Shown here: one piece after another, positions 24,760 to 35,211 of the stretch
How the letters are laid out: every line of letters starts with the position of its first letter
How positions within the stretch are numbered: position 1 is the stretch's first letter
NCBI GenBank assembly: GCA_035525225.1
Contig: DATLFA010000061.1
Location: 128,180-192,179, forward strand
Reading direction: 5' to 3'
DNA length: 64,000 nucleotides
Origin: Acidimicrobiales bacterium
Lineage (GTDB): Bacteria; Actinomycetota; Acidimicrobiia; Acidimicrobiales; WLNW01
Notes under the pieces: generated by a model
Database searches by the model: none
What the model was told of the DNA's origin: nothing
Seen by the model: only the letters and a program-made list of their open reading frames with translations
Position numbers and translations under genes: made by a program

Positions 24760-26115
24760 GTGGCCGACAATCTCTTTGCATCGGCTGCGCGCGACGAACT
24801 GAGCCGACGCGCACCGCTTGCGGCGCGTATGCGACCGACAACGCTCGACGAGATCGTCGGACAAGACCATCTGTTGGGTCCCGGCAAGCCGCTGCGGGTG
24901 TTGATCGAGCGCGATCGCCTGTCGTCGGCGATCGTGTGGGGTCCGGCCGGTACCGGCAAGACGACGTTGGCCAACGTCATCGCGCGCGCCACGGCAAAGG
25001 CGTTCGTGGCGCTGTCGGCGGTCACCGCGACGGTGAAAGACGTGCGCGAAACAGTGGCCGTTGCGCAGGACCGCCTTGGCCAGCACGGTCAGGGGACGAT
25101 CTTGTTCCTCGACGAGGTGCATCGATTCAACAAGGCGCAACAAGATGCGCTGTTGCCCGCGGTCGAGTCGGGCGTCCTCGTACTGATCGGCGCCACGACG
25201 GAGAATCCCTTCTTCGAAGTGAACCCGCCGCTGCTGTCTCGCTCGACGCTGTTCCGGCTCGAACCTCTCGACGACGATGCCATCGCCGAATTGTTGCGGC
25301 GCGGCCTGGCACTCGAGCGCGCGACGGTCACCGAGGAGGCCCTCGCCCATCTGATCACCATCGCGAATGGCGACGGACGGCACGCGCTCACGACACTCGA
25401 AGTGGCCATCGTGCTCGCGTCGTCGCGCCCGTCGACCGCGGCGCGTGCGGAGACTGCGGCTACCGTGGTCGAATTGGTCGATGCCGAGGCCGCGGCGGGT
25501 GCCAAGTCGCTGCGCTATGGCGAAGACGAGCACTACGACGTGATCAGCGCGTTCATCAAGAGCATTCGCGGCTCTGATGCCGACGCGGGGCTCTACTGGT
25601 TGGCGCGCATGCTGGAAGCCGGTGAGGACGCCCGCTTCATTGCTCGCCGCCTTGTGATCCTGGCCTCAGAAGACATCGGCATGGCCGACCCGACGAGCTT
25701 GTTGATTGCGAATGCAGCAGCGCATGCGATCGAGTTCGTCGGGTTGCCCGAGGCGCAACTCAACCTGTCCCAGGCGGTGGTGCATCTCGCGACCGCGCCG
25801 AAGTCGAATCGGTCGTACCTCGCGCTGTCCCGCGCCCAAGAAGCAGCGAAGCGAACGCGCGGTGCCGGCTTGGTGCCCGGCCATCTCCGCGATGCGCATT
25901 ACAAGGGAGCGGCCAAGCTCGGACACGGCAAGGGCTACGTCTATCCGCACGACGATCCGACAGGTTGGGTCGCGCAGAACTATCGTCCCGCCGAAGTGGC
26001 AGACGACGTGTACTACGAACCGTCCGACCACGGGCACGAATCAGTGATCGCGGAGCGCCTCGGTGCTCGGCCACCACGCAACAGCGGTGAGGGGATCAGC
26101 GATGAGCGCCATTGA
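24760..26115 (+). CDS. rarA: Replication-associated recombination protein A (AAA+ ATPase)
   Basis: Track ORF of 451 aa. RMRPTTLDEIVGQDHLLG, Walker A GPAGTGKTTLA, ILFLDEVHRFNKAQQDALLP and the MgsA C-terminal motif HYDVISAFIKSIRGSD. Confidence 0.9.
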   Translation: MADNLFASAARDELSRRAPLAARMRPTTLDEIVGQDHLLGPGKPLRVLIERDRLSSAIVWGPAGTGKTTLANVIARATAKAFVALSAVTATVKDVRETVAVAQDRLGQHGQGTILFLDEVHRFNKAQQDALLPAVESGVLVLIGATTENPFFEVNPPLLSRSTLFRLEPLDDDAIAELLRRGLALERATVTEEALAHLITIANGDGRHALTTLEVAIVLASSRPSTAARAETAATVVELVDAEAAAGAKSLRYGEDEHYDVISAFIKSIRGSDADAGLYWLARMLEAGEDARFIARRLVILASEDIGMADPTSLLIANAAAHAIEFVGLPEAQLNLSQAVVHLATAPKSNRSYLALSRAQEAAKRTRGAGLVPGHLRDAHYKGAAKLGHGKGYVYPHDDPTGWVAQNYRPAEVADDVYYEPSDHGHESVIAERLGARPPRNSGEGISDERH

Positions 26116-26578
26116 CGTTGCGGCGGTCGTCGCGATCGTGTTGTGCCTTGCCGGCGCGGCCTTATTCGCGATCATGGTCCGCCGCATGGTCCGGGCATTG
26201 CGCGACCTCGACGCACTCGCCGAGAGCCTGCGCGTCGAGGCGGTGCCGCTCGTGAGCAACCTCCGGGCCACGGTCCGTCAAGCAGGCGACGATCTGGATC
26301 GAGTCGAGGCGGTGCTCGGCAAGGCCGAGACCATCGCGACCACCGTCGATGCCGCGTCGCGGCTGACCTACCGGGCGTTGCGGCCGCCGCTGGTGAAGAC
26401 GATGGCGTTCATGTCGGGGGCCGGTCGCGCCACCCGGCGGCTGCGGGGCCTGGAAGCCAAGGCGATCGAGGCCAAGGCGATCGACGCGAAAGCCATCGGC
26501 GCGAAGGCCGGCGACAGCACTCGGCGTGAGCAGAACCCACCGCGCCGAACCCGCCGCCGGCGCCGTGGGCGGCGATAG
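26102..26578 (+). CDS. DUF948-like membrane-anchored protein
   Basis: ATG 26102 lies inside track ORF 26063..26578 and overlaps the rarA end. One N-terminal helix is followed by coiled-coil-like LRDLDALAESLRVEAVPLVSNLRATVRQAGDDLDRVEAVL and a basic tail. Confidence 0.65.
   Translation: MSAIDVAAVVAIVLCLAGAALFAIMVRRMVRALRDLDALAESLRVEAVPLVSNLRATVRQAGDDLDRVEAVLGKAETIATTVDAASRLTYRALRPPLVKTMAFMSGAGRATRRLRGLEAKAIEAKAIDAKAIGAKAGDSTRREQNPPRRTRRRRRGRR
26453..26512. repeat. In-frame 15-nt x4 minisatellite (EAKAI EAKAI DAKAI GAKAG) in the DUF948 gene tail
   Basis: Units: GAAGCCAAGGCGATC, GAGGCCAAGGCGATC, GACGCGAAAGCCATC, GGCGCGAAGGCCGGC. Confidence 0.85.
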
Positions 26579-26591
26579 GCGTCTTTCCCCT

Positions 26592-26661
26592 GCCAATGTG
26601 ACCAGCGGCGGATTATCGCCGCCAATGTGACCAGCGGCGGATTATCGCCGCCAATGTGACT
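26592..26661. repeat. R1 element: 29-nt unit GCCAATGTGACCAGCGGCGGATTATCGCC, 2.4 tandem copies
   Basis: Identical copies at 26592-26620 and 26621-26649, with a partial third copy at 26650-26661. Each holds a small hairpin (CGGCGG-ATTA-TCGCCG) and ATGTGA. A related array lies at 34369-34426. Confidence 0.9.
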
Positions 26662-26672
26662 AGCCTGGTCGG

Positions 26673-26981
26673 ATGCCCAAGAGAGCGTTCTGGACCGTTG
26701 TCGGGTACGGCGCGGGTATCGCTTCCACGGTCATGGTCAAGCGCCGGGTGCGGCGCACGGTCAATCGTTATGCGCCGTCGGAGGTGCGCAGCGCCGTTAC
26801 TGCAAGAGGTACCGACGTCGTCGACCGCGCCAAGCGAGTCACCACCGAGATCCGCGCCGCAGCCGACGAAGGACTGCGGGCAATGCGGATTCGACGGCAG
26901 GAACTCGATGACGAATTCGTGCTGCCGAGCGAGATCCAGACGAGTGATCTCCGCCAGCCCGGTCGAATAGGCAATCGATAG
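26673..26981 (+). CDS. Small hypothetical protein with one N-terminal hydrophobic helix
   Basis: Track ORF of 102 aa. FWTVVGYGAGIASTVMV is followed by a charged helical region. It has better codon bias than the overlapping ORF 26656..26970. Confidence 0.55.
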   Translation: MPKRAFWTVVGYGAGIASTVMVKRRVRRTVNRYAPSEVRSAVTARGTDVVDRAKRVTTEIRAAADEGLRAMRIRRQELDDEFVLPSEIQTSDLRQPGRIGNR

Positions 26982-33517: not shown

Positions 33518-34357
33518 GTGAGCAAGCAGCTCTTGGTGGGTCTGTCGATCCCCCTGGGGCTCGTCATCGGCAGCCTGCTCACGATGGTCATCGACCGCGT
33601 GCCCGAGCGGTGGCCGGTGTTCCGGCCGGGCCCGCGTTGCCCGCACTGCGAAGCGCCGATCGCGCCGCGCCACCTCGTGCCCGTTGTGTCGTGGTTCATG
33701 TTGCGGGGGCGCTGCGCTTCGTGCAACGAACGCATCACCGTCGCGTATCCGATCGTCGAGGTCGTCACCGCGTTCGCGTTCGCCGCGGCCGCGGTGCGCT
33801 TCGGGCCCCTCTGGACCGTGGTCGCCTACTGGCTGTTCTTCGCGACGCTCATCGCGGTGTCGGTCGTCGACCTCTTCAATTACATGATTCCCGACCGCAT
33901 CGTGTTCCCCTCGCTCGGTGCGTCGCTCGTGTTGATCGTGGCGATCTCGCTGTACTACGACGAACCAAAGGCGATCGCGGGAGCGCTCATCGGCATGCTC
34001 GCCTACGCGGTGATGCTCGGTCTCCCGTTCGTCATCCGGCCGAACGCGCTCGGCTTCGGCGACGTGAAGCTGGCCCTCGTGATGGGTCTGTTCCTCGGAT
34101 GGACCGACGATTATCTGAACTCTGTCCGTTTGGTGTTGATCTCGCTTGTGATCGGTTGTCTCGTCGGTCTCGGCATCGGCGCCGCGTTGTTCCTCGCCCG
34201 CAAGGTGACGGGCCGCGAGTTGCTGATCGATCCGTTGGTCGAGGCGGGCGAGCTCGCCCCCCAGACCGGGCTGTTCGGGACGACGTTCCCCTTCGGCCCC
34301 GCGCTCGCCATCGGGGCCTCGGTCGGCGTGCTCTTCGCGCCCCAACTGCTGGGCTGA
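33518..34357 (+). CDS. pilD: Type IV prepilin peptidase (A24 family)
   Basis: Track ORF of 279 aa with a GTG start. Zinc-ribbon-like RCPHCEAPI...RCASCNERI, catalytic-Asp region GFGDVKLALVMGLFLGW and multiple transmembrane segments. Confidence 0.85.
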   Translation: MSKQLLVGLSIPLGLVIGSLLTMVIDRVPERWPVFRPGPRCPHCEAPIAPRHLVPVVSWFMLRGRCASCNERITVAYPIVEVVTAFAFAAAAVRFGPLWTVVAYWLFFATLIAVSVVDLFNYMIPDRIVFPSLGASLVLIVAISLYYDEPKAIAGALIGMLAYAVMLGLPFVIRPNALGFGDVKLALVMGLFLGWTDDYLNSVRLVLISLVIGCLVGLGIGAALFLARKVTGRELLIDPLVEAGELAPQTGLFGTTFPFGPALAIGASVGVLFAPQLLG

Positions 34358-34368
34358 TTCCCCGCCGC

Positions 34369-34426
34369 CCGAACGGCGGATTATCGCCGTCAATGTGCCG
34401 AACGGCGGATTATCGCCGTCAATGTG
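34369..34426. repeat. R1 element: two tandem 29-nt copies (CCGAACGGCGGATTATCGCCGTCAATGTG)
   Basis: Identical copies at 34369-34397 and 34398-34426. They share the 23-nt core CGGCGGATTATCGCCG[C/T]CAATGTG and the same 29-nt period with the array at 26592-26661. Confidence 0.9.
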
Positions 34427-34455
34427 AAAGGCTCGCTGCCGACTCAGGGGGTCTT

Positions 34456-35211
34456 ATGGGACGGCTCGACGGCAAGATCGCGCTCATAACGGGGGCCGCG
34501 CGCGGACAAGGCGAATGTGAAGCGCGCCTGTTCGCCGCCGAAGGCGCCAAGGTGTTGCTCACCGATGTGTTGGACGAAGGCGCGGCCGTAGCCGAATCGA
34601 TCGGAGCAGCGGCGGGCTACGCGCATCTCGACGTCACGTCGGCCACCGACTGGCACAGTGCGGTTGCTCTGTGTACCGAGCGCTTCGGTGCGCCCAACGT
34701 GCTCGTCAACAACGCCGGCATCATGGTGCCCGGCACGTTGCTCGAATGTGACGAGGCGACGTTCCGCAAGACTCTCGACATCAACCTCATCGGCGCGTTC
34801 CTCGGCATCCAGACGGTTGCGAAGGCGATGATCGACGGAGGCGGCGGCGGCTCGATCGTCAACATCTCGTCGGTGGCGGCGCTGGTGGCCCGCCCTGGCT
34901 ACACCGCCTACGGCACGAGCAAATGGGGCCTTCGGGGGCTCACGAAGTACGCTGCGATGGAGCTCGGCCACCACGGGATCCGGGTCAACTCGATCCATCC
35001 CGGGGCCGTGGCGACCCCGATGACGCTGCCGGATCTGTCGCCCGCTGCGGTGGCCGAGCGCAACTCCGTGCTGGCCCATCTACCGATTCCGCGCTGGGCC
35101 CAACCCGAGGAAATCGCGAACCTCGCGTTGTTCCTCGCGTCCGACGAGTCTTCGTTCTCGACCGGAAGCGAATTCGTCGCCGACGGTGGCCGCAGCGCCG
35201 GATCGGCCTGA
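34456..35211 (+). CDS. Short-chain dehydrogenase/reductase (SDR)
   Basis: ATG 34456 lies inside track ORF 33610..35211; the upstream part of that ORF is out-of-frame overlap with pilD. TGAARGQG, NNAG and YTAYGTSKWGLRGLTK (YxxxK). Confidence 0.85.
   Translation: MGRLDGKIALITGAARGQGECEARLFAAEGAKVLLTDVLDEGAAVAESIGAAAGYAHLDVTSATDWHSAVALCTERFGAPNVLVNNAGIMVPGTLLECDEATFRKTLDINLIGAFLGIQTVAKAMIDGGGGGSIVNISSVAALVARPGYTAYGTSKWGLRGLTKYAAMELGHHGIRVNSIHPGAVATPMTLPDLSPAAVAERNSVLAHLPIPRWAQPEEIANLALFLASDESSFSTGSEFVADGGRSAGSA

Follow-up and report, generated by a model that had tools for sequence, protein, structure and literature searches.

R1, a 29-nt tandem element found at gene junctions of an uncultured soil member of the Acidimicrobiales, is likely to be a miniature, non-coding and non-autonomous interspersed repeat of the REP/MIRU/SDR kind, amplified locally by slippage. 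Rather than a locus-specific regulatory device, it probably represents a new, mobile family of very small interspersed repeat. Comparison of metagenome-assembled genomes (MAGs), from which its movement is read, reveals that R1 has evidently spread as copies to dozens of unlinked gene boundaries in a single genus, and that, in head-to-tail arrays of one to four or more units, it is gained, lost and decays between species. Such a pattern fits proliferation of the element in the genus, with turnover still under way.

Two arrays and the structure of the R1 unit

The window, i.e. the whole 64-kb stretch of DNA analysed, holds two R1 arrays, which are listed here with their parts and neighbouring genes.

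26063-26578, forward strand: weak DUF948-like gene, with its TAG stop at 26576-26578, 13 nt before array 1
26592-26664, forward strand: R1 array 1, flanked by the DUF948-like gene and by a 102-aa gene that precedes alaS (Tandem Repeats Finder, TRF; sequence)
26592-26603, forward strand: leading partial tail of array 1, GCCAATGTGACC
26604-26634 and 26633-26663, forward strand: full units 1 and 2 of array 1, with an AG common to both
26605-26622, forward strand: hairpin of array 1 unit 1, GCGGCGG-ATTA-TCGCCGC (fold; covariation over 53 copies)
26634-26651, forward strand: hairpin of array 1 unit 2 (sequence, covariation, fold)
26652-26664, forward strand: tail of the last unit of array 1, comprising CAATGTG, the linker ACT and a terminal AGC (alignment, position counts)
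26673-26981, forward strand: 102-aa gene, its ATG 9 nt past the TRF end of array 1 (26664)
33518-34357, forward strand: prepilin peptidase (A24) gene, its TGA stop 11 nt before the TRF start of array 2 (34369) (Pfam)
34369-34426, forward strand: R1 array 2, between the prepilin peptidase gene and a short-chain dehydrogenase gene
34372-34402 and 34401-34431, forward strand: units of array 2, of the compensated ACGG/CCGT subfamily (TRF, sequence)
34373-34390, forward strand: hairpin of array 2 unit 1, ACGGCGG-ATTA-TCGCCGT (sequence, fold, stem-variant tally)
34402-34419, forward strand: hairpin of array 2 unit 2 (sequence, fold, stem-variant tally)
34456-35211, forward strand: short-chain dehydrogenase gene, its ATG 24 nt past array 2 (Pfam)

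The original prediction had placed a 29-nt tandem repeat at 26592, starting 13 nt past the stop codon of the upstream gene, together with a second array of the same period at 34369-34426 and a CGGCGG-ATTA-TCGCCG hairpin in every unit. All of this was recovered: TRF reports 2.5 copies of a 29-nt period at 26592-26664 (97% matches, score 139) and 2.0 copies at 34369-34426 (100% matches, score 116), and the hairpin occupies the four positions listed. The 15-mer core occurs in four exact copies in the window, against 0.3 expected even with up to two mismatches allowed. The upstream gene and its stop are also present as described, whereas DUF948 is a weak label for it (E = 0.031; 14.9 bits, with the cut-off at 37.2). 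This gene carries a C-terminal, in-frame 15-nt repeat (AKAIE/D, three to four times; window positions 26453-26512, TRF rows 26456-26509), the length of which varies among three species. Downstream of array 1, the ATG at 26673 is taken as the real start of the 102-aa gene because between-species differences in its frame fall on third codon positions.

Position counts define the unit as A-GCGGCGG-ATTA-TCGCCGC-CAATGTG-NNN-AG(C), with 31-32 nt conserved: an A at position -1, the 25-mer GCGGCGGATTATCGCCGCCAATGTG, a 3-nt linker (W-S-K) and a closing A-G-C. A single 7-bp GC hairpin, looped by ATTA, is thus followed by a CAATGTG tail and the 3-nt linker, and AG(C) stands at both ends. Most arrays have a 29-nt period because neighbouring units share the terminal AG; two arrays keep both dinucleotides and so have a period of 31 nt.

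A single unit folds at -12 kcal/mol, and over 53 copies from three genomes 96% of stem cells are paired. Double-sided changes affect ten cells compared with 1.8 in shuffled alignments, a count that none of 500 shuffles reaches, and covariation is seen in three of the seven stem pairs and collapses in slid controls. The compensated variants include GCAG/CTGC, ACGG/CCGT, TCGG/CCGA and GGGGG/CCCCC; the last is the form taken by the array 1 ortholog of one sister species (G002), and the other sister (G001) has an uncompensated intermediate. An origin from a tRNA anticodon arm, which would use an alternative 5-bp register, was rejected on the strength of this covariation and of longer forms of the hairpin described below, both of which support the 7-bp register. 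No match at gathering score was found for the R1 array in Rfam.

Sequence as well as structure is kept, which suggests that the hairpin is probably read by a specific recogniser of a folded single strand. An alternative that we regard as unlikely is that R1 is mainly a host cis-acting element, an RNA or ssDNA hairpin bound by a conserved Acidimicrobiales protein, the spread of which would be secondary; it might mark transcript ends, protect mRNA 3' ends, or signal processing or termination at gene boundaries. In its favour, stem, loop and tail are all kept in sequence too (63 of 71 copies have the ATTA loop), the G-T pair that closes the stem is nearly invariant, and G-U pairs outnumber A-C pairs by 11 to 5 on the given strand. 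This last asymmetry, however, is weak and not significant, and the array as a whole folds no better than its shuffles (z = -0.6).

One copy outside the window, in a divergent spacer of the host genome (G000:C21:75464), has the variant hairpin GCCAGCGG-ATTA-TCGCTGGC. As it is followed by GAAA-GCCAGC, its 3' arm can instead join a second hairpin, with a GNRA cap, that directly precedes AGGGGAG and an ATG, in a switch-like arrangement.

Dispersal, gain and loss within the genus

The host genome (G000) is a 5.59-Mb assembly of 97 contigs, 65.6% GC and 97.8% complete, and like all genomes compared it is a MAG. The element had first been noted at two intergenic loci; a genome-wide count of the 25-mer GCGGCGGATTATCGCCGCCAATGTG with up to five mismatches, made with strand and gene context, gave 35 copies at 28 loci, in both orientations and in all spacer types; a covariance model of R1 gave 31 matches. 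A stricter search with a 23-mer and up to two mismatches returned 27 matches in the host, 11 in G001 and 17 in G002, the three species of the genus, and none in 38 other genomes of the family and order, with the reversed control at zero throughout. Among 185,579 species, represented by one genome each, R1 was found in the two sister MAGs only, plus three isolated single matches attributable to chance, and 13 metagenome contigs carry it, one with at least four units at the contig end. The sister genus, like almost the whole of the order searched, has no copy of the short form, which speaks against a host element. A scan of viral contigs yielded 29 single matches, about the chance level, none with the R1 tail and several in homologous phage genes. 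In the literature the sequence string matched unrelated primers only, and nothing was found on repeats of the Acidimicrobiia.

Twelve copies in the host genome are identical over 23 nt, and compensated subfamilies recur at unlinked loci (GCAG/CTGC at four, ACGG/CCGT at four), both of which fit copying from variant source copies. Units stand singly or in direct tandem, with 43 singlets, ten direct doublets, two direct triplets and one direct array of at least four units. The nearest pair in opposite orientation lies 3.4 kb apart on contig C23, and no inverted pair is closer than 3 kb; this pair was considered as a composite element and rejected, since housekeeping genes (glgB, threonine dehydratase, enoyl-CoA hydratase) lie around and between the two copies.

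Array 1 is present in all three species, as 2.5 units in the host, one in G001 and about two in G002. Its last unit is identical at 33 of 35 positions across them and its tail (26652-26664) in three of three, in a spacer that is otherwise unalignable. The neutral yardstick, 4-fold sites of alaS, is only 62-66% identical between the host and either sister (34-38% differ). This excess of identity over the neutral level, together with the locus-specific compensated stem change, indicates constraint or conversion at the array 1 locus, as read from three aligned species. It counts for a host element and against the mobile-repeat reading.

Other loci behave differently. Array 2 is absent from the orthologous site of both sister species and present as 1.5 units in a metagenome relative of 84-85% identity (L053). 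Starting from 13 loci in G001 or G002, the host has an intact copy at C47, C43, C84 and array 1 of the window, a decayed one at C91 and C77, and no element at six, including C17, C18, C97, C73 and C84:225475; one locus is without its left flank. Four more comparisons with metagenome contigs gave two sites filled in the relative but empty in the host, and two at which the host copy has decayed. At both filled sites R1 starts right at the stop codon (TGA/CGGCGG and TAA/CGGCGG, the slash marking the junction). Such loss and decay of orthologous copies (C91, C77, C17, C18, C97, C73) is again at odds with a host element. Units also vary in number at shared sites (2.5/1/2, 3/2 and 1/2), and between relatives the copy number ranges over 0, 1, 2 and four or more units.

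The spacer at C17 (G000:C17:46473-46503) illustrates this turnover. It is empty in the host, holds one to two units in reverse orientation in L059 and G002, and two to four or more in forward orientation in L058 and L057, where the upstream gene has lost its last codons to the forward insertion. On comparison with L002, L057, L058 and L059, the "empty" host site reads TAGCGGGTAG, which may be the footprint of a deletion, an excision or slippage and not a site that was never occupied. Divergence of the spacers meant that neither a clean target-site duplication nor a virgin empty site was recognisable at the loci compared, which weighs against the mobile-repeat reading.

Within an array, tandem units share locus-specific variants, which argues for local slippage or unequal exchange and against serial insertion.

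Position relative to genes and competing explanations

With gene boundaries taken from a custom codon-usage gene caller, which assigns 87% of the genome as coding, all 28 host loci fall in spacers, some of them overlapping a gene end by up to 27 nt and one a weakly scored call. They hug gene boundaries, at a median distance of 10 nt, whereas intergenic positions drawn at random have a median of 83 nt (0 of 5000 simulations), and the placement fits one element per spacer, whatever its length. In four convergent spacers R1 makes up the entire spacer, and 10 of 29 adjacent stop codons lie within it; the unit offers stops in most frames, through frequent CTAG ends, ATGTGA and an antisense TAA in the loop. 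The genes on either side are unrelated in function (dehydrogenase, peptidase, small membrane proteins).

By spacer type, nine loci are convergent, eight divergent, eight same-strand sense and three same-strand antisense. This split is close to the share of intergenic bases, with a mild convergent excess (9 of 28 against 17% of bases). This excess and the enrichment beside stop codons speak for a host element. The eight divergent loci, where no transcript ends, and the mixed orientation in same-strand spacers (eight sense, three antisense) do not. Scans of the arrays for promoter and terminator consensus called nothing, and orientation relative to GC skew or gene-strand bias showed 17 concordant and 11 discordant copies, which is not significant. 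An intrinsic terminator in particular was rejected: the R1 tail, CCAAUGUG, has no U-tract, no terminator was called, and eight loci lie in divergent spacers. A ToxI-like array of a type III toxin-antitoxin system was likewise rejected in view of 28 loci with unrelated neighbours; ToxI-like repeats form one array of about 36-nt units directly upstream of an endoribonuclease toxin gene.

Two or more R1 sites directly follow putative short-chain dehydrogenase genes (G000:C47, and L008 of G002, matching G000:C18), identified from their C-terminal motif. The C-terminal ..NGG.. codons of these genes (AACGGCGGCG) resemble the R1 5' arm, a microhomology that might guide insertion or deletion.

The function had originally been left open between a protein-binding iteron, an RNA element and a junction-type repeat. 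The junction-type character stands, given the median of 10 nt against 83 nt. For a dsDNA iteron, or an operator read by a regulator or a chromosome-organising protein, one can cite a short inverted repeat in tandem and about 28 sites per genome. About a third of these sites, however, lie between two convergent stop codons, next to genes of unrelated function and in mixed orientation, and they are gained and lost between close relatives. The arms of the subfamilies change together, so that pairing is kept and half-site identity is not, unlike the conserved half-sites of an operator. An iteron is therefore not supported, and we consider it very improbable.

A translational device, in which ATGTGA start-stops and chained GTGA mini-ORFs couple or uncouple neighbouring genes, as has been proposed for MIRU, is just as hard to sustain. 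The mini-ORFs (MTSGGLSPPM*, 26598-26630 and 26627-26659) exist at array 1 exactly as first described, and the ATG and GTG of the tail are conserved. The chain nevertheless ends, as had been pointed out, in a GTG at 26656 that is out of phase with the real gene (ATG at 26673). Nor is the start-stop a property of the family: CAATGTG is followed by A at 19 of 55 loci, by T at 26, by C at 6 and by G at 4, and with a TGA after the ATG in only 19 of 55 loci, ATGTGA and the mini-ORF chain are by-products. GTGA is not enriched in operon spacers between same-strand genes (3 of 8, compared with about 9 of 20 for the rest), and 20 of the 28 loci fall outside the class of sense-oriented copies between co-directional genes. 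At G000:C25:70848-70872, outside the window, R1 does supply the last nine codons and the stop of a gene, which reads into the element and ends at ATGTGA. The residues encoded there, IGGLSPKM*, use the same frame as the array 1 mini-ORF.

A neutral local duplication confined to two spacers, for which the tandem structure itself and nothing more could be cited, is refuted: instead of two loci and relatives devoid of the element, there are about 28 loci in the host genome, further loci in both sister species and 13 metagenome contigs.

For the preferred reading, a mobile miniature repeat, the following course can be proposed. A putative trans-acting enzyme would recognise the invariant GGATTATC-capped hairpin in folded single-stranded form, be it ssDNA or RNA; as the main step, we infer that this enzyme copies or inserts R1 at gene ends. 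Arrays would then grow or shrink in place by replication slippage or unequal exchange. The element would survive in spacers only, because its 29-nt period breaks reading frames, and where it abuts a gene it would end translation cleanly, because of the stop codons in most of its frames. A few copies, including array 1 near alaS, may have been co-opted by the host. Given how strongly array 1 and, across families, the hairpin sequence are conserved, some copies may serve the host, or a recogniser may itself be conserved.

Known small repeats and the wider hairpin superfamily

Very small interspersed repeats are common and, to our knowledge, a mechanism of movement is known for the REP/RAYT system only. 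REPs are mostly organised as inverted doublets (REPINs), and the RAYT gene is typically flanked by REPs. R1 shares much with these elements, being small (REPs measure 21-65 nt), extragenic, excluded from coding sequence and present in tens of copies, with one imperfect palindrome, a conserved flanking tail and a degree of conservation that suggests a specific recogniser of the folded strand (PMC3116915). With 28 intergenic loci and a covarying hairpin, it is literally repetitive, extragenic and palindromic. It differs in forming singlets or direct tandems and never inverted doublets, in having no GTAG-type head, and in its number of about 30 copies per genome. No match to the RAYT/Y1 transposase family (PF01797) was found in G000, G001, G002, G388 or G116, while control genomes matched.

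The likeness to MIRU, a 40-100-nt unit of Mycobacterium (Supply et al. 1997, summarised in PMC3184786), is also considerable. Both are actinobacterial, intergenic and GC-rich, with an internal inverted repeat and tens of copies per genome; both form head-to-tail arrays, the copy number of which varies between strains or relatives, overlap the stop and start codons of their neighbours, have short direct repeats at the ends of filled sites, and show filled and empty orthologous sites between relatives. The R1 unit is shorter (29-31 nt), dissimilar in sequence and hosted by Acidimicrobiales. It also occurs in all spacer types and both orientations, unlike MIRU with its sense orientation inside operons; sense, same-strand copies account for just 8 of 28 loci, the period is not divisible by three, and the mini-ORFs are not conserved. 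R1 thus fails the defining tests of both REPIN/RAYT (no PF01797, no inverted doublets) and MIRU (size, host, orientation).

Cyanobacterial small dispersed repeats (SDRs; Elhai et al., PMC2884548) resemble R1 in having a 20-30-nt unit that is dispersed and tandemly iterated, and in their apparent mobility without a recognisable transposase or clear target duplication. R1 differs in phylum and sequence, in its asymmetric hairpin-plus-tail build, and in its link to a form of about 95 nt in other families. MITEs are defined by terminal inverted repeats and by a target-site duplication that matches a transposase family; in R1 the internal hairpin is the sole inverted repeat, and for the (N)AG(C) that stands at either end no clean empty site confirms a duplication. 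A further actinobacterial motif, the mycobacterial terminator TRIT, is described as palindromic, bidirectional and restricted to Mycobacterium (PMC3152330).

The core of the hairpin extends beyond the genus. Of 401 genomes of the order, 14, from eight genera, contain the exact 16-mer CGGCGGATTATCGCCG, with the reversed control at zero in all, and in other genera this 16-mer caps longer tandem units:

32-34-nt units: G116, G213 and G329 (one genus), in two to five units
82-84-nt units: G388, with 35 copies of the 14-mer GGCGGATTATCGCC in 2.4 Mb
89-90-nt units: G132
99-nt units: G182
151-nt units: G284

The 32-34-nt arrays (L035, G116:C1:2958930-2959034; L042, G213:C34:83757-83904; and G329:C23:92694-92741) contain three, five and two units, respectively; their 16-nt hairpin is that of R1, followed by a tail of another sequence, GACATAGATCGAGCC or GGCTATCAGGCACCG, and they may represent a variable-number locus. 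The 82-151-nt form is a tandem-prone structured repeat of other Acidimicrobiales families (L039-L046 and L062-L081 in G388, L038 and L044 in G132, L041 in G182, L043 in G284), in which the 5' module GCTGCGGAGTCCGCCAGGCGGAGCAGC is followed by a variable hairpin and then by a 10-bp stem with GGATTATC as its cap. Its consensus runs from GCTGCGGAGTCCGCCAGGCGGAGCAGC through a variable stretch to GCTCCGTGCAACGGGCGCC-GGCGGATTATCGCC-GGCGCAA..GGAGYC and folds at -60 kcal/mol (z = -5.6). A search of Rfam with the long form returned nothing at threshold, M23 RNA (RF03006) reaching 29.1 bits at L043:180-231 (G284) against a gathering score of 41.2.

When genomes were searched with a model of the long form, G072 and G132, which belong to one genus, had 17-21 copies, two others had a few, and the host genome of R1 had none. 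As the tail of the long form (e.g. GCAATGTCATGGAGC) resembles that of R1 (CAATGTGTGGAGC), R1 looks like a stripped-down 3' module, hairpin plus tail, of a structured repeat of about 95 nt. Retention of the same 16-nt hairpin in distant families is a further point for a host element. A more ambitious proposal, which we regard as doubtful, is that CGGCGG-ATTA-TCGCCG is the site of an undescribed, non-RAYT enzyme that acts on a folded single strand and mobilises modular elements across Acidimicrobiales families. If this were true, it would constitute a new REP-like system with its own transposase or nuclease, and its set of elements would span the 29-nt R1 and the 32-34-nt, approximately 95-nt and 151-nt units.

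At 29-31 nt, R1 is among the smallest units of its kind, and it combines the lack of a RAYT with direct arrays and an exact 16-nt hairpin common to longer repeats of distant families. This shared hairpin provides a concrete route to the responsible protein by phylogenetic profiling. For the genus itself, R1 explains odd spacers, C-terminal tails and stop codons in the annotation, and its arrays are variable-number markers with which strains of this uncultured soil genus can be told apart.
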